Shown here: one piece after another, positions 30,381 to 45,781 of the stretch
Numbering within the stretch: the first letter of the stretch is position 1
How the letters are laid out: each line of letters begins with the position of its first letter
DNA from: an uncultured Mycoplasmatota bacterium
Lineage (GTDB): Bacteria; Bacillota_I; Bacilli_A; RF39; UBA660
Length of the DNA: 64,000 nt
Assembly: GCA_947165285.1 (NCBI GenBank)
Contig: CAMUZS010000003.1
Coordinates: 87,598-151,597 of the forward strand
Reading direction: 5' to 3'
The notes under the pieces: model-generated
Databases searched by the model: none
What the model was told of the DNA's origin: nothing
What the model saw: the letters and a program-made list of their open reading frames with translations, nothing else
Position numbers and translations under genes: made by a program

Positions 30381-32522
30381 TTATTCACCCTTTTCATTTT
30401 TTTCTTTTTTTACATAGTTTTTATTTTTATCTAATCCTTCACCAGGTTTAAATCCCTTATTTAATTTTTTATTAAGATAAGTAAAATAATCTCTTTTTAT
30501 AGCTAAATTATTCATAGCCATTTCATTTTTAATACTATTATTAATATATGATAATTCTTCATCTGTATAAGTTTCTTCACCTAAATATTTAATCTTACCT
30601 TTAGCAGCATCAAAATAAGCTTTATCACTTCTCCAAGATCCATCTGCAAATGCTACATAATTTGGATAAGCATCACTTAAAAGATCATATCCACCATAAA
30701 GACGTGGGTCATAATCTAAATCAAATAAATTTGCTATAGTTGGAGTAATATTCATAAATGATGTATATTCATAATACTTTTTAGATTCTAATTTAGGATT
30801 ATAAATAATAAATGGAGTTCTATCTACATCACCATTTGATGATATATCATATTTTGTAATTTGTTTAAATGTAGATTCATCAAGACCATATGGTTCATGA
30901 TCTGCATAAATCATTAAAACAGTATCATTTAATTTTCCACTCTTTTCAAGTTCATCTAGTAAAACACCAAACATATCGTCTACAATTTTTAATTTAGACA
31001 TATATCTCTTGTTTTCTAAACTCCATTTTTCCTTTTTAAATAGATTTAAATACTTATCACCAGTTACTGAAGAATAAGAATATTTCATATGAGATGAAAC
31101 AGTTGTCATCCAAGCCATAAATTTATCATTATTAATAAATTTAGGTAAAGCTTTTTTAGCAAAATCATCATCACATGGCCAAGGTTGATATTCAGATCCT
31201 AATCTCATTCCTAAATCGTAAACTCCATAAAATTTTCTACTTCCCATGTTTGGATGATAATCATGTCTATAATAAAAGTGATCGTCAAAATCATGATAAC
31301 TAGAAGTATTATATCCTTGTTCATTAAATAGATTAAATAATGATTCATAATATGTATTGCCTTTGTAAACATTTGCAGTACAATTTCTATTAATTGTATA
31401 AAGCGATGTAATACCACTCATTTCGTTATTTCCTGTTGAACAAGCATTTCTTGGTGAAAAAGCATTTTCCCAAGACCAACCACCATTATATATTTTAGCA
31501 AAATTAGGGAAATACTCTGGATAATTAATTAAAACATTTGACCCAGACTCTATCATAATTACAAGTAAATTTTTTCCTTTAAACATTCCAGTATATTCAT
31601 TTTTTGGTGTTATTTCTTTACTCATAAAATATTCATTTAATTTTTTGAAATCAGGAACAGTTTCTTCATCATTTAGTTTAATCCATTCACTGTCATCAAT
31701 TTCTCTTTTTAAATCATCTTTTACATTATTGAAAATATCTCTTTTTTCAGCAAGCCCTACTTCAACTTCTTCATCAGTTTGAAAAATAAGAGCTTTAATA
31801 TCAACAAATGCAAAACCTTCAATACCAAATTGAGAAACAGCAACTCTAGTCATAGATGGATTTTTAAATGATTGAAGTGCTGTAACTGATTGAGTTTTAT
31901 TTTGCATGAAATCTGCACCTAATGATAAATAATAAAAAATACTAAATACAACTATTGCTAATAAAAATGATAATCTAGTAACTAAATTTTTCTTTTTTAA
32001 TTTCTTTTGTTGTTCTAATCTAGCAGCTTCTTTTTTCTTTTTACCTCTTATTTTATCTATAAATGATACTTCTAAATTTGATTCATATGTATTAATTTTC
32101 TTTTCAAAAAATATAAGATAAATAACAAACAATACAAATGGAATTAAAAGTAAATAATAATGAGGTTTAATACTTTTAATAAAGTCTCCAATAAATCCAG
32201 TAATTGCCTCTGCTTGAGTAGATGTTGCAAGCGACATATAATTTGTAAAATAATCATTAAATCCAGCTTGAGCAATAGCATATATAGTTGCAACTAAAAG
32301 AATTAAGATAATACAAAAATTTCTCCAAAATTTATTAAAGAAAGAAAATATAATTGCTAATAATGAAGAAAAAACTGTAATACCTAAAGCAATTCTTAAA
32401 ACTGACCAATCAAATGGTAATTCCATTACTCCTTTAAATATCATTTCTATTAAAAATATTGCAAAAAACAATAACATAAATGTTCTTAATGTTTTATTAA
32501 TTAGTAATTTCATCTTTTTCAA
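30381..32522 (-). CDS. LTA synthase (LtaS) family sulfatase-fold membrane protein
   Basis: Five N-terminal TM helices plus an extracellular alkaline-phosphatase-like domain (LLVIMIESG, ACSTGNNEMSG, IYADHEPYG). Confidence 0.85.
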   Translation of the reverse strand: MKKMKLLINKTLRTFMLLFFAIFLIEMIFKGVMELPFDWSVLRIALGITVFSSLLAIIFSFFNKFWRNFCIILILLVATIYAIAQAGFNDYFTNYMSLATSTQAEAITGFIGDFIKSIKPHYYLLLIPFVLFVIYLIFFEKKINTYESNLEVSFIDKIRGKKKKEAARLEQQKKLKKKNLVTRLSFLLAIVVFSIFYYLSLGADFMQNKTQSVTALQSFKNPSMTRVAVSQFGIEGFAFVDIKALIFQTDEEVEVGLAEKRDIFNNVKDDLKREIDDSEWIKLNDEETVPDFKKLNEYFMSKEITPKNEYTGMFKGKNLLVIMIESGSNVLINYPEYFPNFAKIYNGGWSWENAFSPRNACSTGNNEMSGITSLYTINRNCTANVYKGNTYYESLFNLFNEQGYNTSSYHDFDDHFYYRHDYHPNMGSRKFYGVYDLGMRLGSEYQPWPCDDDFAKKALPKFINNDKFMAWMTTVSSHMKYSYSSVTGDKYLNLFKKEKWSLENKRYMSKLKIVDDMFGVLLDELEKSGKLNDTVLMIYADHEPYGLDESTFKQITKYDISSNGDVDRTPFIIYNPKLESKKYYEYTSFMNITPTIANLFDLDYDPRLYGGYDLLSDAYPNYVAFADGSWRSDKAYFDAAKGKIKYLGEETYTDEELSYINNSIKNEMAMNNLAIKRDYFTYLNKKLNKGFKPGEGLDKNKNYVKKEKNEKGE

Positions 32523-33498
32523 CTTCCTTTTCCCTATATATTAAATCACGAACTGGAGCATAAGTAAAACGATAATTTTCTAAAACACCATATTTTTTTA
32601 TAATTTCCAAATGTCTTTTTGTTGGATAGCCCTTATGCTTTGCAAATTCATACTCTGGATATTTCTTGTCTAATTCGTACATCATATTATCTCTAGTTAC
32701 TTTAGCTATAACCGAAGCTGCTGCAATAGATTGAGAAATAAAATCGCCATGAACTATGCTAATACTTGGAATATCTAAATCAAGCTCCATAGCGTCAATT
32801 AAAACACATTTTGGAACAATTTGCAAGTTTTTTATCGCTTTTTTCATAGCAAGTTTAGATGCTTCATAAATATTTATTTCATCTATAGTTTTTGCATCTA
32901 CGATTCCAATTCCAATTGAAATAGCATCACGTTTTATAATATCATAAAATTCATTTCTTTTCTTTTCACTTAATTTTTTAGAATCAGTTAAACCATTTAA
33001 ATGATAATTTTTAGGTAAAATAACACAAGATGCAACAACAGGACCAACAAGCGGACCACGACCAACTTCATCAACTCCTGCTATTAAATCTATACCATTA
33101 CTAATTAATTCTTTTTCATATCTATAATTATCATCTTTTGCTAGTAATAAATCTAATTGTCTAATTAATTTTTTATCTTTTGATCTATTTAATAATTTTT
33201 TTAATTTTAAACATTCCTCAAGATTCATGGTTTTATAACCATTTATAATATCAATATTTTTTTCATTATAATAAGATGTACCTATTTCAAATACATCCTT
33301 TGTTTTAATAATGTTTAAATATCCTTTAGTTTCTTCCCAATCAATACTATCATAAATTTTTTTACTAACAGATATATCTATATCTTTAGTTTCATCAATT
33401 ACATCATGAAGTACTAAACTAGTACCTGATATTATAATATAATCATCTTTATTTAATTTTAATTCATTTAATTTGTTTAATACTTCATTCTTATTCAT
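32497..33498 (-). CDS. rnhB: ribonuclease HII with an unusually long N-terminal nucleotidyltransferase-like extension
   Basis: RNase HII core GVDEVGRGPLVGPVVASCVIL, DSKKLS, KHKGYPTKRH. Start set at ATG 33498 (GGTGA RBS) rather than the ATG at 33513 inside the rbgA stop region. Confidence 0.9.
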   Translation of the reverse strand: MNKNEVLNKLNELKLNKDDYIIISGTSLVLHDVIDETKDIDISVSKKIYDSIDWEETKGYLNIIKTKDVFEIGTSYYNEKNIDIINGYKTMNLEECLKLKKLLNRSKDKKLIRQLDLLLAKDDNYRYEKELISNGIDLIAGVDEVGRGPLVGPVVASCVILPKNYHLNGLTDSKKLSEKKRNEFYDIIKRDAISIGIGIVDAKTIDEINIYEASKLAMKKAIKNLQIVPKCVLIDAMELDLDIPSISIVHGDFISQSIAAASVIAKVTRDNMMYELDKKYPEYEFAKHKGYPTKRHLEIIKKYGVLENYRFTYAPVRDLIYREKEVEKDEITN

Positions 33499-33506
33499 AA
33501 TAACAA

Positions 33507-34367
33507 TCACCATTCATATCTATCAAATGTAATACCTTGAATTCTTTCACTTTTTACATCATTTATTATAGCTTCACTAACTCTATTAAAATCAGCTTCA
33601 CCATTTTTATAGGCACCTAATTTCTTGCCAATAGTATTATAAACTTCTATAATATCTTCATCAAGACTTTCCATATTATATCTCATACTTAATTTATCTG
33701 GATAATATTTATTTAATTTTTCTAATATATGCCAAGATACTTTGCCTATTGGAAGTACCTCTTCTCTTATTGCTGACATAGAAGCAAGATTTAATGCTAC
33801 TTCTTCACTTTCTATTTTTGGCCATAAAATACCTGGAGTATCTAATAATAATACATTTGATTTTGTTTTAAGCCATACTAAATTAGTAGTAACACCAGGT
33901 TTATTACCAGTATTTGCTACATTTTTTTGAACAAACCTGTTGATAAGAGTTGACTTACCAACATTTGGAATTCCAAGAACTAATACCCTTATTTCTTTAT
34001 CCTTCATTCCCTTATCATTTCTTTTTTGTTGAATACTTTCCATTAATTCATTAGTAATATTAATAAGTTCATTAAAATTAACACTTGATTCAGATAAATC
34101 TAATTTAACAACCTTATATCCTTTTTCTTCATAATATTTTATCCATTTATTAGTTTCATCTTTATCACATAAATCATATTTAGTTAAAATTAAAACTCTA
34201 GGTTTCTTTAATAATATATTATCTTTATCTTGAATCTTAGAAGAAAAAGGAATTCTAGCATCTATTATTTCATATACTACATCTATTAGCTTTTCCTGTT
34301 CCATTATTAACCTTCTAGTTTTAGCCATATGACCAGGATACCAGTTGATGTTAGTTTTATTATCCAT
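33507..34367 (-). CDS. rbgA: ribosome biogenesis GTPase A (YlqF/RbgA), circularly permuted GTPase
   Basis: G4 LTKYDL precedes G1 GIPNVGKST and G3 DTPGILWP. Start set at ATG 34367 (MDNKTNINWYPGHM; GGAG RBS 8 nt upstream) rather than the TTG at 34391. Confidence 0.9.
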   Translation of the reverse strand: MDNKTNINWYPGHMAKTRRLIMEQEKLIDVVYEIIDARIPFSSKIQDKDNILLKKPRVLILTKYDLCDKDETNKWIKYYEEKGYKVVKLDLSESSVNFNELINITNELMESIQQKRNDKGMKDKEIRVLVLGIPNVGKSTLINRFVQKNVANTGNKPGVTTNLVWLKTKSNVLLLDTPGILWPKIESEEVALNLASMSAIREEVLPIGKVSWHILEKLNKYYPDKLSMRYNMESLDEDIIEVYNTIGKKLGAYKNGEADFNRVSEAIINDVKSERIQGITFDRYEW

Positions 34368-34400
34368 AGGAATCACTCCATTTCTATTCAATTATAGCAT

Positions 34401-34430
34401 AAAAAAGACGAAATTTATTACTATTTCGCC
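34401..34430 (-). terminator. hairpin + T-run upstream of the rbgA promoter (ends ORF214 transcription)
   Basis: gacgaaat/atttcgcc stem, followed on the minus strand by TTTTTT and then TGcTATAAT (34391-34399). Confidence 0.55.
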
Positions 34431-34451
34431 CATTTTTAAGTCATTTTCGTA

Positions 34452-34472
34452 GTTACTATAAACCGTAATCAA
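34452..34472 (-). repeat. 21-mer TTGATTACGGTTTATAGTAAC (minus strand), copy next to the rbgA promoter
   Basis: Identical to 35331-35351. Confidence 0.9.
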
Positions 34473-34510
34473 TTATTTGAATATAGTTTCCTGGTCATAT
34501 GGTATTTAAA

Positions 34511-35155
34511 TTATTTAGTTAGTTTTTTTATTTTACTTTGACTATATAAATATTCTTCCATATGAATTTGGTGTCCATAATCATTAACATCGTCTATTTC
34601 TTTCATATTACTATACATTCTCATAAATACTACATTAAACGGATTATAAAAACTTCCTGAATTTCTAAATCTTATTGGAATATGATGCAAGGAATTAAAG
34701 TCTCTATCATATCCATCAATGTATGGTTGAATAAAAAATTCTAATTTAAATATTTCATCTTCTTTTTTTATTTTTAAAACGTTGGCTACACAAAATGCCG
34801 TTTCATCAGAATACCAAGTTATTAATTTTTCTTTTTCATTATATAATACATTATAATTTGATGTATTTGATTTTCTATATTTTTCTTTTTGAGCTTTTTT
34901 AAAATTACTACTAAATTGGTGGTTTTGATATTTATATATATTTATATCATCTATATCATTAAATAATTGTTCAAATAGTCTATATACTTCATAGTTTTCT
35001 TTAGTAATTACAAAGTTATTATCTTTATTAACTTCTTCTGAATAAATAATCCAATATAAATCTAAATTACCTCCATAGGTAATAGCAAGATACTTATTTT
35101 CTTCTTTAAAAAATATATCTATTCCAAATTCACTGTCTTGTTTTACAACTTTCAT
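34511..35155 (-). CDS. hypothetical cytoplasmic protein (cassette ORF, 214 aa)
   Basis: GAGAAGAGG RBS 6 nt before the ATG. No signal peptide and no recognisable family. Confidence 0.6.
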   Translation of the reverse strand: MKVVKQDSEFGIDIFFKEENKYLAITYGGNLDLYWIIYSEEVNKDNNFVITKENYEVYRLFEQLFNDIDDINIYKYQNHQFSSNFKKAQKEKYRKSNTSNYNVLYNEKEKLITWYSDETAFCVANVLKIKKEDEIFKLEFFIQPYIDGYDRDFNSLHHIPIRFRNSGSFYNPFNVVFMRMYSNMKEIDDVNDYGHQIHMEEYLYSQSKIKKLTK

Positions 35156-35176
35156 ATTATACCTCTTCTCACAATT

Positions 35177-35195
35177 GTTACTGTGTCGTAATCAA
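35177..35195 (-). repeat. 19-mer variant TTGATTACGACACAGTAAC just upstream of the ORF214 RBS
   Basis: Shares the TTGATTACG...AGTAAC ends with the 21-mers. Confidence 0.7.
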
Positions 35196-35330
35196 TACCT
35201 TAATTCCTATACAATTTTTCATATATTTTGGTCATTTTTGACTAATATTATTAAAGTTTTATATATTTTATTATAAAGATGCAAGATATTAATTCCCGCA
35301 AAACCTTATAAATAAAGGAACTTTTAAAAA

Positions 35331-35351
35331 GTTACTATAAACCGTAATCAA
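35331..35351 (-). repeat. 21-mer TTGATTACGGTTTATAGTAAC fused directly to truncated rbgA' codon 9
   Basis: Identical to 34452-34472. Confidence 0.9.
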
Positions 35352-35512
35352 CCAATTTATATTAGTTTTATTATCCATAGGAATCACTCCATTTCTATTC
35401 AATTATAGCATAAAAAAGACGAAATTTATTACTATTTCGTCCAATTTTAAGTCATTTTTATGGTTACCATAAATCGGTATCAAATATTAATATATAGTTT
35501 CCAAGATATATG
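35352..35512. repeat. copy 2 of the ~160-bp direct repeat (orphan rbgA' codons 1-9 + RBS + -10 + terminator + degenerate 21-mer at 35463-35483)
   Basis: Encodes MDNKTNINW with synonymous differences from copy 1 (AAT ATA AAT vs AAC ATC AAC), then breaks off. Confidence 0.9.
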
Positions 35513-35519
35513 ACTATTA

Positions 35520-35771
35520 ATTATTATCTGATTATAATAATAAACCAACTTTTTCTTTAATAATATTCATTTTATCTTCATTCATTATTCTATTTGGTCA
35601 ATTTTTTTACTTTGAATTTTTAGAAGAAATAATTGATTCTTGATAATGTCTATGTGCATTTTCTATACACTTATCTGCATCTTAAATAATTTTCAAATAT
35701 TTTTTTGTATATTTTATTCTTTCTTTTTTTGCGTTATTTATTGAATCACAATTAGGTAATACTATTTTCAT
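35520..35771 (-). pseudogene. probable decayed gene fragment (29-codon ORF followed by in-frame stops)
   Basis: GAGGAG RBS + ATG at 35771 gives MKIVLPNCDSINNAKKERIKYTKKYLKII*. The same frame continues as DADKCIENAHRHYQESIISSKNSK* after the stop. Confidence 0.3.
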
Positions 35772-35860
35772 TTGATACTCCTCTCTTTATTTTTTTCTCT
35801 TAATTTTTCTAATACTTACTTTAAATACATAATATATTCCTTTCTTTATTAATTATAATA

Positions 35861-35891
35861 TAAAATTAAATGTGTTGATATTATCAACACA
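35861..35891 (-). terminator. Rho-independent terminator of the SipW/TasA-like operon
   Basis: Inverted repeat tgtgttgata/tatcaacaca (35871-35891) immediately after the TAA at 35893; T-rich tail on the minus strand. Confidence 0.6.
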
Positions 35892-35892
35892 T

Positions 35893-38073
35893 TTAACTTA
35901 AATACATTGTATTATATAACAAACCATCTATAGTTTCAGTAGAATCTATTCTTGTACTATTATCTTCAAATTCATTTATATTACCATTTATTGAAGATGT
36001 AACACCTTTAGAAATACCATCATAATATTTCAAAGTTCCAGTATTACTTATTCCATAGGTTCTACCAACCATAACCGGTGTACTAGCATTAATATTTCCA
36101 TCTTTTGATCCAATAATTAACGTAGATACATTATCAACAGCACTAAAGTTTTTAGAAATTATTGTTCCACCTTTTATAGTTATAGTACCACCATTTAAAT
36201 TTTGAACAGTGGCTCTTTGATTAGTAGTAGAAGTAAGATATGCATCCCCTGATATTTCTACAATACCACCATCATTATATACAGCTTGTCTTGTTCCTAT
36301 TGCATTAATACTTCCACCAGTTATATATAAATATGCCCCTTTATAATTATTTATAGCACCTTGAGTTGTACTAGAATTAATTGTTCCATTAATAATTTTT
36401 AATGTACCATAATTTTTAATAACATTACTTACACCACTATTTCTTAAAGTATTACTTTGAATATCAAGAACTACATTTTTATTTTTTTCAATAGTAATTA
36501 ATTCTGCTATATCATGTAATACTGTAATAGTTACTTCCCTATTATCAGCTGGAACAGCATTAATAGCTTGTTGTAATGTTTTATATTCAACATCACCAAT
36601 TCTTGCATTTTTAGCATCCTCTATGCTTGTCCAATGAGCAAAGAATTCTATGTTATCACTAATAACAGTATCTTGATTAATCTTTGTTCCACCTTCTAAA
36701 GAAGTAAACCATCCATCAAAATAATAACCTGTTCTTGTTGGAACTGGAAGAACACCTACTTTATCATTCTTCTTAACATTTCTTGTAGCTTCACTACATG
36801 TTCCTTCATTTGAATTAAATCTTACTTCATATGTTTGTGCTAAATATGACATAACATAGATATTGCCATTAATATAGTCAGTATCATTAAAAATACCATA
36901 ACCATCTTCAGTATCACTTACTTTTGAAAAATCTTCAAATGAATTTTTAGTTCCTTTAATAACACCATCATAAAATCCAAAAGCACTCTTACTACTTACT
37001 CCATATAAATACCCTTGTAATACTGGAGTATTAGTATTTACAGTACCATCTTTTGAACCAATTACTAACGTACCATTAGCATTTTCTACAGCATATTTTT
37101 TTTCAGATATTATTGTTCCACCTAAAATAGTAACATGTCCATTTCCAACATTATTTATAGTAGAACGTTCCGGTGCATTTGTTTTTAAATAAGCACTACC
37201 AGATATTTCTACAGTACCACCACTATTATAAATAGTTTGTCTTATTCCTGTAGTTATAATACTACCACCTGACATTTTAAGAACACCAGTAGGATTATTA
37301 TCTATTGCTCCAAACCCCGCATCAGATGTAATAGTACCATTTTTTATTTCAATAGTACCATTATTTATAATAACATTAGTATTACCATTATTACTAATTG
37401 TAAAATTTTGAAAATCAAATTCAATATTTTTACCATTATCTATTTGTAATAATTCACTAGTATTCTTTAATAAAACTACTGTTGTCTTTTGATTATTAGT
37501 TGGAACATCATCTATTGCTTCTTGTAATGTAGCATAATAAGTCTCACCTATTCTAGCAACATTAGATAATTCTTCAAAAACAAAATCTAATTCAAAAGGA
37601 TAAGTAATATTTGAACTATCATATACTCCTTCCTTATATTTCATTGTTATATATAATTCCTTAGTTGCCCCAAAGTTACACTCATTATTATTATTACAAA
37701 GAGCATCTCCAATACTATAATCAGATAATTCAAAATCCAAATAAGGACTTTCATTTATTATTTCAGATATCTTCATTACTGACTCAAGATAAACCGTTAC
37801 ATTTACTTTATAAGTTATACTTGAATCAGTATTCGGTAATGTTACATTACCATAGATTTTATCCATATTATAATTTTCAGAATTACTAACTCCCATACCA
37901 CTAGAATTAGTTGCAATAATATTTGTAATTCTAGCCATCGCAGTTGGTTTTACTGATGCCATAATATTTTCAATTTTATCAGTTGCTGAAGCAGCTGAAA
38001 AACCAACAGATAAAAATGTTATACTTATAAATAGTACTAAAATGATTAATAAAATACTCTTATTTCTTTTCAT
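35893..38073 (-). CDS. secreted large subunit/adhesin: TasA-operon-type signal + N-domain, two ~240-aa beta-helix-like modules separated by one Flg_new repeat
   Basis: MKRNKSILLIILVLFISITFLSVGFSAASA...ASVKP resembles the N-terminus of the 213-aa protein. It also contains TGYYFDGWFTSLEGGTK and an internal duplication (ARIGETYYATLQEAIDDVP... / ARIGDVEYKTLQQAINAVP...). Start set at ATG 38073 (GAGGAA RBS). Confidence 0.75.
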   Translation of the reverse strand: MKRNKSILLIILVLFISITFLSVGFSAASATDKIENIMASVKPTAMARITNIIATNSSGMGVSNSENYNMDKIYGNVTLPNTDSSITYKVNVTVYLESVMKISEIINESPYLDFELSDYSIGDALCNNNNECNFGATKELYITMKYKEGVYDSSNITYPFELDFVFEELSNVARIGETYYATLQEAIDDVPTNNQKTTVVLLKNTSELLQIDNGKNIEFDFQNFTISNNGNTNVIINNGTIEIKNGTITSDAGFGAIDNNPTGVLKMSGGSIITTGIRQTIYNSGGTVEISGSAYLKTNAPERSTINNVGNGHVTILGGTIISEKKYAVENANGTLVIGSKDGTVNTNTPVLQGYLYGVSSKSAFGFYDGVIKGTKNSFEDFSKVSDTEDGYGIFNDTDYINGNIYVMSYLAQTYEVRFNSNEGTCSEATRNVKKNDKVGVLPVPTRTGYYFDGWFTSLEGGTKINQDTVISDNIEFFAHWTSIEDAKNARIGDVEYKTLQQAINAVPADNREVTITVLHDIAELITIEKNKNVVLDIQSNTLRNSGVSNVIKNYGTLKIINGTINSSTTQGAINNYKGAYLYITGGSINAIGTRQAVYNDGGIVEISGDAYLTSTTNQRATVQNLNGGTITIKGGTIISKNFSAVDNVSTLIIGSKDGNINASTPVMVGRTYGISNTGTLKYYDGISKGVTSSINGNINEFEDNSTRIDSTETIDGLLYNTMYLS

Positions 38074-39166
38074 CGTTAATTTCCTCATTCAAATCGCTTA
38101 ATCTTACCATATAATAATATAAACTATCATTATGTACTATATAAAACACACATTTTTCATGTTCTTCGATTAAATAATAGTTTATTACTTCTTTAATATT
38201 ATCTCTAACATCAACTAATTCTTGAAATTCAACTACTTTAATAAGTTTATAATCATCAAAATTAATTAATGTACATACATTAACGATTATTCTGTCATAA
38301 CACTTTAATATTTTATTAACATGTTTATCAAAATTATTATCTTTTAATTTTAATAGTTTATATAATCTTCTTACTTTTTTTAAATATCTAACTAAATAAA
38401 TAAGAATTAATAATAAGATTATTATACTAATAATTAAGAATAATACATCTTTTATTACATATTTAGTATTAGTAACTATTTTATTCTCATTTTCTAATTT
38501 TTCATCATTTAAATTTATATTTATTTCTTGTTGAGACAAAGGTATTTTTAATGTAGTCTTACTAGTATTAAATAATTTATAACTATTATCTTCTTTATTT
38601 TTTTCTTCAACTTGTAAGTATACTTCTAAATAACTTGTTGTACTAACAGCATAACTTGTTCTAAACGAATTTACTAAATTGTTATATTCATCATAATCTA
38701 TTTCAATATTTTCATTAATTATAATTCCTTTGTCATTATTTATTTCTTTAATAGTATCTTCTTTTAAAACATATTGTTTTTCAAAAAAGACATTTGAATT
38801 ATTTTGACTAGCTATAACTAGGTTACCAATTATATTGTATTTAACATCTAAATAACTTTCTTTATCAACATTAAATTTATATGTAAAATCAACATTAACT
38901 TTATTAATTAAACTAGCCACATAAGCCATATTTTTTCCTAAAAAAGGCGTATCATAAAAATCATTTTCTTTTAAAAATATTTTATAATCAATACTACCTG
39001 TTTCTTTATAATTAACTATACTATCTTCAGAAAAAGAAAAAGCTTTATTAAATGCCAAAAGTAAAAAAATAATAAGAAGTATTAATATTAGGGTACTGCA
39101 AAAAAAACGCAAGTAAAAACGTCTTCTTACTCTAATATCTAAATACTTCTTATTAATTACTCCCAT
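38060..39166 (-). CDS. two-TM membrane protein of the DUF5305-like type found beside SipW genes
   Basis: N-terminal TM, ~200-aa extracytoplasmic region, second TM (VLFLIISIIILLLILIYLV), ~110-aa cytoplasmic tail. The family assignment comes from recalled gene context only. Confidence 0.55.
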   Translation of the reverse strand: MGVINKKYLDIRVRRRFYLRFFCSTLILILLIIFLLLAFNKAFSFSEDSIVNYKETGSIDYKIFLKENDFYDTPFLGKNMAYVASLINKVNVDFTYKFNVDKESYLDVKYNIIGNLVIASQNNSNVFFEKQYVLKEDTIKEINNDKGIIINENIEIDYDEYNNLVNSFRTSYAVSTTSYLEVYLQVEEKNKEDNSYKLFNTSKTTLKIPLSQQEININLNDEKLENENKIVTNTKYVIKDVLFLIISIIILLLILIYLVRYLKKVRRLYKLLKLKDNNFDKHVNKILKCYDRIIVNVCTLINFDDYKLIKVVEFQELVDVRDNIKEVINYYLIEEHEKCVFYIVHNDSLYYYMVRLSDLNEEINDEKK

Positions 39167-39171
39167 TTTTA

Positions 39172-40296
39172 TCAACTCTCTTTATTAAGCCAAACTGTTG
39201 GATAACCAATAAATGGAACTTTTGTATCTACTTTTCCTATAATGGCTTCTTCTTCAGTTAAGAAATCATCTATTTTATTATTAGAATCCCCTTTTGTATA
39301 ATACATATTTTTTCCATCTAATTTTACTTTTTTATATATTCTATGCACAACAACAACGTCATTGTGTTTGAAGGCAATAATATCCCCTTCTTCTAGTTTT
39401 TCTTTAGGAACCTTTTGATCAACAATTACAACATCGCCAATATGTATTTTAGGTTCCATACTACCACTGGCAATAGCAACAGCATAAAATCTAAAATAAC
39501 CACTATAAAAATATATCATAACGCATATTACCGCTATTGGTAATATGATACCTTTAAATTTCCTTTTGTGATAATTACTATCAAAAATTTTATCTTTTCT
39601 GTAATCAAGGAATTTTAATATTCTAAATGAGAATACTACAGGTACTACTAAATATATTATAGATATAACATATTCACTAGGATTTGGTAAAATTGGTATT
39701 ATATATGGATATAAAGTAAAAACTAAATCAAATATTATTACAGGTTTATATCCTAGTTTTCTTGTAATATATGAGTAACATATATTTCTTGAAATAACAG
39801 GTAGCAAGGTAAGTGCCACATATCTTAATACGTCATATGCAGAAGTAAAATTAGTTGGAATAGTATTATATGTTAAATCCATCAAAATTAAAGTTATAAC
39901 CACAATAACTGTACAAATTTTACTTCCTTCAGCTTTACAAAGCATATTATATCTAAATATTTCTCTTAATATACAATAAAATATAACTGGAATAATAAAT
40001 TTCTTTAATCCATCAATGGTTAAATAGTTTTGTGTTCTTGCAAGTCCAACAGCCAATCCTAGCAAATAATATAATATAAAATATAAGACTACATAGAATA
40101 ATATTTCAAATAATATATCTTTCAAGTATCTGTTATTATCTTTTTCAATCACAAAGAACTTGTGAAATATTATTAATAATAATCCTAAAAATAAATCAAT
40201 TTTAAATTTTGAGAAAAAACCAGTAAAAGTATTAATTAAAAGTATTATTATTATAATTGCTATAAAGAATAATAATCTTTTATAACCCTTTTTCAT
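39172..40296 (-). CDS. sipW: SipW-type (ER/archaeal-type, S26B) signal peptidase I fused to a ~260-aa N-terminal polytopic membrane domain
   Basis: C-terminal ASGSMEPKIHIGDVVIV...GDIIAF...VVVHRIYKK...YYTKGDSNNKIDD gives the Ser/His catalytic pattern of SipW/Sec11. About 7-8 predicted TM helices precede it. GGAGGA RBS. Confidence 0.85.
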   Translation of the reverse strand: MKKGYKRLLFFIAIIIIILLINTFTGFFSKFKIDLFLGLLLIIFHKFFVIEKDNNRYLKDILFEILFYVVLYFILYYLLGLAVGLARTQNYLTIDGLKKFIIPVIFYCILREIFRYNMLCKAEGSKICTVIVVITLILMDLTYNTIPTNFTSAYDVLRYVALTLLPVISRNICYSYITRKLGYKPVIIFDLVFTLYPYIIPILPNPSEYVISIIYLVVPVVFSFRILKFLDYRKDKIFDSNYHKRKFKGIILPIAVICVMIYFYSGYFRFYAVAIASGSMEPKIHIGDVVIVDQKVPKEKLEEGDIIAFKHNDVVVVHRIYKKVKLDGKNMYYTKGDSNNKIDDFLTEEEAIIGKVDTKVPFIGYPTVWLNKES

Positions 40297-40345
40297 TTTT
40301 TTCCTCCATCTTCATCTACTAACTAATTAGTATTAATAGATAACA

Positions 40346-40987
40346 TTAGTCTACTGAATCATATGTTAAAACAATACTTGGTAATGTAACATCAAAGTCA
40401 CCATCTGCTTGTCCACTACCATCAGCATAAGTTATAGTTACAATAACTTGTTCAGCAGCATCGGTTGCTAAAGAATGACTAGTTAAACTTGCTACAGATG
40501 TAGTTGTAGCTGATTCACTTCCTACTTTAGCACTTAGTGTAATTCCAGTACATGCAGTATCAACTAAAGCTTGAGTAGTTCCAGTTTTAGCTGTACAAGT
40601 TTTTGATCCTTGGAATACAATACTATTTAAATATGCAACATATTTTCCTGCATTATATGCATAAAATGTATATGTAGCTGATTGTCCTGGTTCAGTAAAT
40701 GTTGCTTTTAAATTAGATACTGTTGGATCCGATGTATTATCAATTGTTGCGGCAGTAGCTGTAAACCCATCTACATTTTTATTTAATGTTGGTGTAATAT
40801 TATCTGTTTCAACTGCAGATGAACTAGATGAAAAATCAACATTAAATGATGATGCATCTGGCTTAACCTCAGCTGATGAAGAAATTGTTAATGTGTTTGA
40901 AAATGCAGCGTAACCAAGTGATACTCCTACAATTCCTAGCAATAATGCGGCAATTGCTAATGCCTTATAACCTTTATTATAATTCAT
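40346..40987 (-). CDS. secreted TasA/BsaA-like candidate fibre subunit (213 aa, Ala/Ser/Thr-rich)
   Basis: Signal anchor ALAIAALLLGIVGVSLGYAAFSNTLTISSSAEVKP. First gene of the operon, with a strong AAGGAGGAG RBS and codon use visibly less AT-rich than its neighbours. Confidence 0.7.
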   Translation of the reverse strand: MNYNKGYKALAIAALLLGIVGVSLGYAAFSNTLTISSSAEVKPDASSFNVDFSSSSSAVETDNITPTLNKNVDGFTATAATIDNTSDPTVSNLKATFTEPGQSATYTFYAYNAGKYVAYLNSIVFQGSKTCTAKTGTTQALVDTACTGITLSAKVGSESATTTSVASLTSHSLATDAAEQVIVTITYADGSGQADGDFDVTLPSIVLTYDSVD

Positions 40988-41351
40988 AAAAAACTCCTCC
41001 TTCTTAATAATTACAAATTATAAATTTTTATACCATAGAACATACTTGAAACACTAGTCTGTTACTATAACTTTAGTATATCACAGATTAATATTTATAC
41101 AATCAAAAAGTAAATAAATAATTGTAAAAAAATGTAAATTATACATCTATTTTACATTTTATAGTAGCATCTTAATAAAATCATCAGATAATTTCTTATC
41201 TAACTTATCTATTAACAACCGATTAATTTCATACAATTCCTCGACAATACTTCTAACAATTACGCAATTACTTTTCCCTTCATTGTTACAAATGTAAAAT
41301 TCATTAAATTTCATAAATATCACATCATTTTTATACTATAAATAGTCATAA

Positions 41352-45298: not shown

Positions 45299-45781
45299 TT
45301 AAAACTTCTTAAAATGATTAAATGGGAAAATTATTAAATCAGTAGTTCCTAGTATTTGATCTTTCTTAACAGGTCCAAATGACCTACTATCAAATGAATT
45401 ATTTCTGTTATCACCAATAACAAAATATTCATCATCACCTAAAATATATTCTTTAAAATCAGGAGTTTTTCCATTAGCATGAGAATCATCAACTTCTTCA
45501 TTATTAACATAAATAATTCCACTAACACATTTTATTTTTTCACCAGGCATTGCAAATAATCTTTTGATTAATTTGTTACTTCCCTTTTGAATAACAACAA
45601 TCTCACCTTTTTTTAAATTATTCTTAGCAAATTTCTTTAGTATCATAACATCTCCACTAAATAATGTTTTTTCCATTGAAGGACCATCTACAGTTACCGG
45701 AGTTATAATAAAACTTCTAATTAATACAACAACTAATATAATAACAATATAAGGAATAATTTCCTTAATAATTTTTTTCAT
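45299..45781 (-). CDS. lepB: signal peptidase I (bacterial LepB/SipS type, S26A)
   Basis: VDGPSMEKTL (Ser), IKRLFAMPGE (Lys), GDNRNNSFDSRSFGPV. Confidence 0.93.
   Translation of the reverse strand: MKKIIKEIIPYIVIILVVVLIRSFIITPVTVDGPSMEKTLFSGDVMILKKFAKNNLKKGEIVVIQKGSNKLIKRLFAMPGEKIKCVSGIIYVNNEEVDDSHANGKTPDFKEYILGDDEYFVIGDNRNNSFDSRSFGPVKKDQILGTTDLIIFPFNHFKKF

Follow-up and report, generated by a model that had tools for sequence, protein, structure and literature searches.

A single-gene cassette after codon 9 of rbgA in an uncultured gut bacterium and its probable mobilisation by large serine recombinases

The window analysed in this study is a stretch of 64,000 nucleotides (nt) from an uncultured Mycoplasmatota bacterium (contig CAMUZS010000003.1), in which the start of the gene rbgA is duplicated around a small gene. 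The segment 35351–34341 is probably a non-autonomous cassette, integrated site-specifically after the Trp9 codon of rbgA on an integron-like platform, most likely by a large serine recombinase (LSR) acting in trans. The cassette is considered non-autonomous because the window holds no recombinase. A first-pass annotation, made from the sequence alone, had proposed an integrative element that was inserted after Trp9, brought a replacement 5′ end and was mobilised in trans; this core reading was supported by the related genomes.

Two direct repeats of 162 nt were found at 34340–34501 and 35351–35512, with an identity of 142/162 and a spacing of 1011. Their longest identical run was 78 nt (34351–34428 and 35362–35439). 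On the minus strand, both copies contain a terminator-like hairpin with a T-run (34431–34406 and 35442–35417), an extended −10 element TGCTATAAT (34399–34391 and 35410–35402), the ribosome-binding site (RBS) GGAG (34379–34376 and 35390–35387) and a segment from ATG to TGG encoding MDNKTNINW, codons 1–9 of rbgA (34367–34341 and 35378–35352). Terminator-like sites numbered 4 in the region, compared with 0.2 expected. The nine codons of the two copies show synonymous differences only (AAC ATC AAC versus AAT ATA AAT). Only the lower copy, starting at 34367, continues into rbgA; in the upper copy the junction TGG/T lies at 35352/35351. The first-pass annotation had described the repeats (as about 160 bp long and 1011 bp apart), their signals and the single continuation into rbgA in the same way, and all were recovered on re-reading. 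The features of the region are as follows.

35352–35512, minus strand: distal (attL-side) rbgA upstream module, with a box variant, the terminator, TGCTATAAT, GGAG and codons 1–9 of the displaced rbgA start (rbgA′)
34341–35351, minus strand: inserted unit of 1011 bp, from the first base past the upper TGG to the final G of the lower TGG
35196–35351, minus strand: gene-less leader module of 156 nt, with box1 TTGATTACGGTTTATAGTAAC (35351–35331) followed by further blocks
35304–35318, minus strand: imperfect palindrome CCTTTATTTATAAGG in the leader
35279–35287, minus strand: conserved promoter-like block ATCTTGCAT in the leader
within the 156-nt leader, minus strand: A-rich stretch, then TAGGAATTAAGGTA
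35177–35195, minus strand: box2 TTGATTACGACACAGTAAC, the gene cassette's own junction box
34511–35155, minus strand: ORF214, the cargo gene
34341–34502, minus strand: proximal (attR-side), cassette-borne module, with box3 (34472–34452), the terminator, TGCTATAAT, GGAG and codons 1–9
33507–34367, minus strand: rbgA (ylqF), intact, 286 amino acids

The 21-mer TTGATTACGGTTTATAGTAAC that forms box1 and box3 occurred exactly twice in the 64 kb, compared with 0 expected. One variant is box2, and another, TTGATACCGATTTATGGTAAC, lies with 4 mismatches at 35483–35463. The recurrence and the variants were as first annotated; the position of the upper 21-mer had to be shifted by one base, to 35351–35331. 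Box3 is located 110 nt inside the 3′ promoter module of the cassette. The cassette had also been described as bounded by TTGATTACG..AGTAAC sites, which did not hold, since the recurrent boundary on both sides is ...ATHAAYTGG. At the left junction, the 21-mer (box1) makes up the right half, on the cassette side, and it is not a site at both ends.

The non-coding interval between the upper TGG and ORF214 was 196 nt. The displaced rbgA start opens an open reading frame (ORF) of 29 amino acids, MDNKTNINWLITVYSNFLKVPLFIRFCGN followed by a stop codon (35378–35289, minus strand), which reads into the cassette. The upper copy is regarded as resident and the lower as imported because the upper module is closer than the lower copy to the native module of the empty-site genomes L047 and L006 (variant B), while the lower module is variant A, as in L063. 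The upper copy, judged by this resemblance, is probably the original rbgA promoter and start of the lineage. The left junction, leader, gene and 3′ module were all reproduced at 97% identity in an independent assembly, L095. The similarity between the window and L095 begins in the rbgA′ codons and extends through the cassette.

For comparison, 80 RbgA-anchored loci were used with one genome per species, all from uncultured gut 'Bacilli/Tenericutes/Mollicutes' metagenome-assembled genomes (MAGs); the overall comparison covered about 100 related loci, numbered with the prefix L. The hosts of the system are uncultured gut Bacilli/'Tenericutes' with 24% GC. About 60 distinct junctions were catalogued in about 40 related loci, and in all of them an rbgA-like start ending in ...ATHAAYTGG is followed by sequence unrelated to rbgA. 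The left side of the junction is an ORF start ending in ...ATH AAY TGG, of either the short type M(D/N)(E)NKTNINW or a long Lys/Glu-rich type ending in ...INW. The right side falls into three classes: T1, TGG/TTG-N6-ATTTA... (n = 41); T2, TGG/TA..CTTATGGAAAAC, which resembles rbgA itself (n = 14); and T3, TGG/G... (n = 5). The identity between attB, attL and attR stops exactly at TGG, and the following base is T or G.

The cassettes were 0.26–2.3 kb in size, mostly carried a single gene and were inserted exactly after the Trp9 codon TGG. At its 3′ end, the cassette brings its own RBS and rbgA codons 1–9. Measured from junction to junction, the units (n = 58) had a median length of 1150 bp and a range of 261–5821 bp, and all shared the strand of rbgA. 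Upstream of rbgA, a locus had between 0 and at least 10 copies of the rbgA start, without exception on that strand. The highest number was seen in L063, with at least 10 junctions in 10 kb, and L098 contained about 22 same-strand genes ending at rbgA. The 3′ terminator-promoter module is the native rbgA upstream region of the clade, present at the empty sites L047, L006, L050 and L066, and ORF214-type cassettes with this module at the 3′ end were found in L095, L097 and L063. In other arrays, the junction consists of the RBS and nine codons directly after the stop codon of the cargo gene.

Evidence for mobility was obtained from empty sites and from shared cassettes. Among the 35 species-level loci with at least 3 kb of upstream sequence, 13 were empty and 19 had junctions. 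The first-pass annotation had suggested looking for empty sites in relatives, and the uninterrupted order terminator-promoter-rbgA was found in L047, L006, L050, L066 and L013. The empty locus L047 and the locus L042, which has a RhuM cassette exactly after TGG, share the same upstream flank. The same cassette was also found at differing array positions and in differing species, with 80–92% nucleotide identity (L041, proximal, versus L063, seventh; L001 versus L002; L024 versus L042/L069). The window cassette itself recurs in L095 behind a long-type rbgA′ fragment and with other neighbours. The junction position, the empty and filled sites, the arrays, the sharing of cassettes between species and the modularity of the leader were all established by these comparisons. 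A supposed 34350→35347 joint in read set X2 was rejected; it had 26 nt only on one side and most likely reflects cross-mapping from another junction.

The arrangement of the leader was compared among the cassettes. In most T1 cassettes, the junction is followed by the ATCTTGCAT block, an A-rich stretch and TAGGAATT..GGT, and box2 lies just before the RBS of the gene. Box2 is a second copy of the cassette-specific box, and cassettes with short leaders have one box only. The leader from box1 to box2 is, on sequence comparison, a separable module. The window leader is common to two unrelated genes (L002_6697 and L063_8691), and the similarity ends right after box2. The ORF214 homolog in L096 and L097 has the order rbgA′/box2-RBS-gene without a leader, and in L096 box2 directly follows the rbgA′ TGG. 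A contig from run X27 joins 35342 to 35185, an exact deletion of the 156-nt leader.

A hairpin or dyad with a CTT..AAG core, CCTTATAAAATAAGG, was observed at +31 to +52 from the junction (35318–35304 in the window). It occurred in 36 of 60 junctions, compared with 20 (standard deviation 3) in shuffled sequences. Compensatory variants such as ACTCTT..AAGAGT were found, as well as a 10-bp stem in L063_8691. At many T1 junctions, the conserved ATTTAG provides the stop codon (TAG) of the ORF equivalent to that of 29 amino acids. In L003 (6251–6916), the rbgA′ start is called as one gene with a HAD hydrolase, to which it is joined in frame.

The lower module of the window also contains one arm of a 17-nt inverted repeat (16/17), 34486–34502 versus 34325–34341, with the sequences CCATATGACCAGGAAAC and GTATCCTGGTCATATGG. 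The left end of the module (34502–34486) is an inverted copy of rbgA codons 10–15, and the arms enclose the promoter, the RBS and codons 1–9. Across species, the arm is kept mainly as CATATG and a few bases, with no co-variation with rbgA. The repeat could be a relic of an inverted half-site. A regulatory RNA helix was considered and rejected, because no co-variation with rbgA third positions was seen in L047, L053, L050 and L066. The interval 33400–36000 had no match to Rfam families.

The junction repeat also leaves a mark on assemblies. In at least 15 of the 80 species-representative MAGs, the contig ends upstream of rbgA at a distance of 20–350 nt. The word depth of the RBS and rbgA′ segment in metagenomes of the ruminant gut was 10–100 times that of its flanks. 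Both the contig breaks and the raised depth are ascribed to the junction being multi-copy. The repeat is a systematic assembly breakpoint, and therefore the arrays are probably under-counted.

Recombinase genes were searched by tblastn over all loci. LSRs were found in relatives, inside elements with the same junctions, as the first-pass annotation had suggested should be checked. Their domains were Resolvase, Recombinase and Zn_ribbon_recom, and one also had DUF4368. The best match in the PDB was the TnpX N-domain 2mhc (E = 3.6e-31). Elements with a single LSR, flanked by an rbgA′ fragment on one side and the live rbgA on the other, were present in L027 (4.7 kb), L048 (4.4 kb) and L015 (3.7 kb). 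In L009, L018 and L035, tandem LSRs preceded the rbgA junction by 84–178 nt, and in L059 and L102 they lay immediately upstream of rbgA; remnants were present in L016, L031, L042 and L049. A scan of viral contigs for the junction pattern added L094, which encodes on the rbgA strand a 155-amino-acid resolvase-domain protein and two LSRs of 550 and 544 amino acids, followed by GNAT cassettes and junctions. The other 10 of the 11 matches in that scan were chance hits in phages of 31–40% GC and were rejected, and L094 alone is relevant.

The LSR genes are co-located and co-oriented with rbgA. In 8/8 LSR-positive loci the gene was upstream of rbgA and in the same orientation, and in none was it downstream or opposite. 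The LSR-bearing elements and the LSR-less cassettes use common boxes and leaders, for example in L027 and L002_9950. The cargo of the LSR elements included OLD/Gabija-like, DRT-UG31, PbeC and RhuM genes. In other hosts, distant LSRs with 34–41% identity were not next to rbgA in 79 of the 80 metagenome matches of the LSR-profile scan, which serve solely as a control for specificity. On the cassette side, T1 sites (n = 41) have a weak dyad ATAAAY-TG-GTTGAT around a non-palindromic TG, with a score of 0.46 versus a null of 0.33 (standard deviation 0.05). For comparison, the att sites of LSRs span about 40–50 bp, with an imperfect dyad around a non-palindromic crossover of 2 bp. From the co-location of the genes, it was inferred that LSRs most likely catalyse the insertions.

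A mechanism can be proposed in which a TnpX-like LSR, single or as a tandem pair and probably heteromeric as in CcrAB, would be supplied in trans and would recombine the rbgA′/box site of a cassette with the rbgA 5′ end. The crossover could take place anywhere in the shared rbgA′ segment and not to the right of TGG; a position at or near the invariant TG/GG of TGG appears probable. The ATTTA centre of the box was excluded as the crossover point, since the sequence at empty sites is TGG TAT CCT... and the switch in every attL site is at TGG. The right end of the cassette would mimic the rbgA 5′ end, which would restore the essential gene and leave a new attB-like site beside rbgA. Because the cassette arm is an rbgA-start mimic, the product attR would again be attB-like, and the next cassette would therefore land beside rbgA and shift older ones distally. 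L094, with the LSR element distal and the cassettes proximal, L042 and the window are consistent with such proximal growth, which appears to be the direction of the arrays. Repeated insertion would produce same-strand arrays, and the locus would act as an integron platform built on serine recombinases.

The arrangement of promoters suggests how the genes could be expressed. The displaced original promoter and start would read into the leader and probably express ORF214. The cassette-borne terminator would insulate rbgA, which would run from the cassette-borne TGCTATAAT promoter, RBS and first nine codons. In arrays with only the RBS and nine codons at the junction, rbgA would be co-transcribed with the cassettes.

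Several points weigh against integration by LSRs in trans. No recombinase motif and no LSR homolog were detected in the 64-kb window, in line with the earlier statement that the enclosed DNA encodes no recombinase, and an LSR within 10 kb was missing from 14 of the 19 junction-bearing loci, so trans action has to be assumed. Distal parts of long arrays have no recognisable rbgA′ fragments (L001 1–8500, L002 1–6600 and L098 850–9900). The genes there are tightly packed on the same strand with spacers of 10–60 nt; either the distal junctions were eroded or deleted, or those genes arrived by a second mode of accretion. The alikeness of box1, box2 and box3 within one cassette is left without explanation, one possibility being that the box class reflects recombinase specificity. 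The dyad symmetry of the T1 sites is weak, with none in the live attB. An attP is told apart from an attB by canonical serine integrases, whereas the two partners here have the same left half, which would fit only the less directional behaviour of the Ccr type. An excised circle or a same-species empty site was not seen, the Logan unitigs being too short and broken at repeats and the raw-read runs not containing the strain.

The cassettes could also be site-specific and yet be moved by another recombinase, either a tyrosine Int/Xis as in Tn5253-type elements or the host Xer, with the LSRs only as cargo or moving only themselves. Tyrosine-integrase elements of streptococci do target the rbgA 5′ end, most array loci have no LSR nearby, L025, L029, L035 and L078 have XerC/D-like genes a few kb away on the downstream side of rbgA, and the junction is also readable as the inverted repeat TAAAYTG-N8-CRRTTTA. 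This explanation is nevertheless unlikely. Elements bounded by rbgA′ junctions contained LSRs but in no case a tyrosine recombinase, and no tyrosine recombinase adjoined an array. The LSR genes were always upstream and co-oriented and ended beside the junction. The junction site is unlike the Firmicute dif, and the Xer genes show the topA-xerC synteny usual in Firmicutes. Xer/dif and IS200/IS605 (with TTGAT/TTAC targets) had no sequence or gene support. Homologous recombination at repeated rbgA′ and leader sequences, without a dedicated recombinase and with the window repeat as a local duplication so made, is somewhat less likely still. The rbgA upstream region would then be a hot spot of gene gain, loss and shuffling, either following transformation or between repeats. 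Repeats of 27–160 nt that include long stretches of identity (78 nt here) are suitable substrates, the 156-nt leader is gained or lost between the direct repeats box1 and box2, and the module variants look mosaic. What this process leaves unexplained is the origin of an rbgA-start mimic 3′ of each unrelated gene, about 60 junctions switching exactly at TGG with three unrelated right-hand classes, and the same junctions on LSR elements. Homologous recombination probably adds shuffling on top of the site-specific insertion.

The TTGATTACG..AGTAAC boxes were also considered as operators of a regulator shared by ORF214 and rbgA instead of recombination-site halves. Each cassette has 3–4 box copies, upstream of the promoter module and before the RBS of the gene, and the same box class precedes unrelated genes. 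The first-pass annotation had itself raised a common operator as a possibility; the boxes before L002_6697 and L063_8691 do agree with it in position, and they proved to be part of a shared cassette leader, not a general operator. The boxes vary by cassette while the junction geometry is constant, and box1 always abuts TGG. In cassettes that share a leader the similarity ends exactly at box2, the natural deletion spans box1 to box2, and the window cassette encodes no cognate regulator. An operator in place of a recombination site is thus very improbable, and a regulatory role as a second function is possible. It is hardly credible that the feature arose by mis-assembly or by recent slippage that duplicated the rbgA promoter region, and this reading is largely refuted. 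In its favour, breaks and mis-joins at this repeat are frequent in short-read MAG assemblies, and the available reads could not span it. Against this, the repeat copies differ at 20/162 positions including synonymous codons, the two module variants are known from different species, and the same cassette, junction and 3′ module occur in the independent assembly L095. Dozens of further assemblies, produced independently and in part taken from long-read MAG collections, had the same architecture.

The system was compared with known elements. The staphylococcal and enterococcal cassette chromosomes (SCC, such as SCCmec, and ECC), moved by the large serine recombinases CcrA/CcrB, resemble it in that the recombinase genes are often a tandem pair and the end of a conserved ribosome-related gene is targeted and restored. 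Direct repeats containing the gene end, variable cargo, a regenerated target that leads to stacking and recombinase-less relatives are also shared. Tandem or composite and ccr-less forms of SCC exist. SCC and ECC target the 3′ end of rlmH; in the present system it is the 5′ coding end of rbgA that is used, with promoter, RBS and nine codons replaced. The units are of 0.3–2 kb with a single gene, in arrays that reach 10–20, compared with islands of 20–60 kb. The LSRs of the relatives scored 82–119 bits with the NCBIfam model of CcrB (cut-off 900) and at most 85 with that of CcrA (cut-off 700), and the att core ATHAAYTGG is unrelated to TATCATAA of SCC.

Tn5253 and other streptococcal integrative and conjugative elements (ICEs) have an attB over the first codons and upstream sequence of the gene, and the element copy keeps the N-terminus and may replace the promoter. 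These ICEs are 20–65 kb long and conjugative, with tyrosine Int/Xis and repeats of 83/84 bp covering the first 20 nt of the coding sequence. The rbgA 5′ end as target and the kept N-terminus are common to both systems; the size of about 1 kb, the junction after nt 27, the arrays and the associated LSRs are different. The window cassette has a single ORF of 214 amino acids, with no Int/Xis and no transfer genes. In sequence and in structure, the LSRs described here are most closely related to TnpX and TndX of Tn4451 and Tn5397 from Clostridia, including the DUF4368 tail. TnpX acts on the 6-kb transposon that encodes it and inserts it with low specificity at GA-centred targets, whereas the LSR clade here is tied to a single gene target.

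Integrons, especially sedentary chromosomal ones, share one fixed insertion point beside a resident promoter, long same-strand arrays of mostly single-gene cassettes, and cassettes without their own recombinase. The cargo is also similar, with GNAT, NUDIX, toxin-like and anti-phage genes (DRT, OLD/Gabija-like, PbeC, RhuM and TIR). In contrast to integrons, there is no IntI and there are no attC imperfect palindromes, the +31 to +52 hairpin being not attC-like. The repeated unit is a direct copy of the target-gene start, the insertion is inside an essential ORF, and many cassettes have their own promoter-like leader module. No prior description of LSR-driven cassette arrays at rbgA was found in the literature. 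The individual features are known, and no description was found of the combination of rbgA 5′ targeting, LSRs and single-gene arrays.

Whether these genome-reduced gut Bacilli ('Tenericutes'/RF39-like MAGs) have a serine-recombinase analogue of the integron is an evenly balanced question. In such a system, the attI equivalent would lie in the first codons of rbgA, an rbgA-start mimic would replace attC, the leader and promoter modules would be shuffled by the same machinery, and the arrays would be banks of small enzymes and anti-phage genes. Among systems that accumulate single-gene cassettes, only integrons are well understood, and Firmicutes-type lineages essentially lack them. If the analogy is true, the rbgA arrays would be a second, independent way of storing cassettes, based on serine instead of tyrosine recombinases and with an essential gene as the anchor. 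With an essential ORF in this role, each insertion would select by itself for precise recombination. The hosts are abundant, uncultured gut bacteria of humans and ruminants, and the systematic MAG contig breaks at rbgA would be accounted for. The signature of an rbgA start followed by a box would allow hundreds of mobile accessory genes to be harvested, including orphan folds such as ORF214 and compact defence genes. The LSR/att pairs, with a short, defined natural target, may serve as genome-engineering tools.

ORF214 encodes a protein of 214 amino acids with no match in Pfam, NCBIfam, PADLOC or PHROGs, in agreement with its first description as a protein of no recognisable family. A search for homologs, which had been suggested together with a structure prediction, detected 561, none of them named. 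Where the context was readable, the homologs were always in long same-strand runs of small unrelated genes, and these runs ended at rbgA where the contig reached far enough. Other genes in these runs encode NUDIX, GNAT, HD, flavodoxin, 2′-5′ RNA ligase, TIR-WD40, dCMP deaminase, ASCH, APH-like, dUTPase and NADAR proteins, among others. The predicted structure was confident (pLDDT 86, pTM 0.80), and no relative of the fold was found among solved structures (PDB fold search) or viral structures (BFVD).

The rbgA site is also occupied by larger islands. Islands of more than 10 kb were observed upstream of LSR pairs, with a type I restriction-modification system carrying a tyrosine-recombinase hsdS shufflon (L035 1–3500), PbeC/DndD-like ATPases (L018 1268–3283) and MazF-like toxins in L009 (5276–5716) and L018. 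Therefore, the rbgA 5′ site also hosts defence islands.

The RbgA protein of the window was assigned to the YlqF equivalog TIGR03596 with 311 bits (cut-off 208). The conserved core of the family profile begins at residue 7, so the junction after Trp9 is at the very start of the conserved protein. Exact-sequence look-ups returned no record of the window RbgA or ORF214. The N-termini of RbgA in L004–L083 fell into discrete short types (MDNKTNINW, MNENKTNINW and MNNENKTNINW) and a long type with a Lys/Glu-rich extension of 25–30 amino acids ending in ...INW, which goes with LSR elements. These types are shuffled among species. From this distribution, the first 6–30 residues of the essential RbgA appear to come from whichever element inserted last.

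The neighbourhood of rbgA in the window contains rnhB downstream and lepB and rplS 10 kb upstream. The 380 nt at 35513–35892 had no ORF and no match in the other loci. Between lepB (45299–45781) and the rbgA module, the minus strand at 35893–41000 carries a block of surface or secretion-type genes, including a 731-amino-acid Listeria-Bacteroides repeat protein, a DUF5305 membrane protein and others. This block is missing from the lepB-rbgA interval of several relatives. The RNase HII gene (32497–33513, minus strand), whose start overlaps the rbgA stop, encodes 338 amino acids with an extra N-terminal domain of about 100–140 amino acids, and the family profile begins at residue 105–143.

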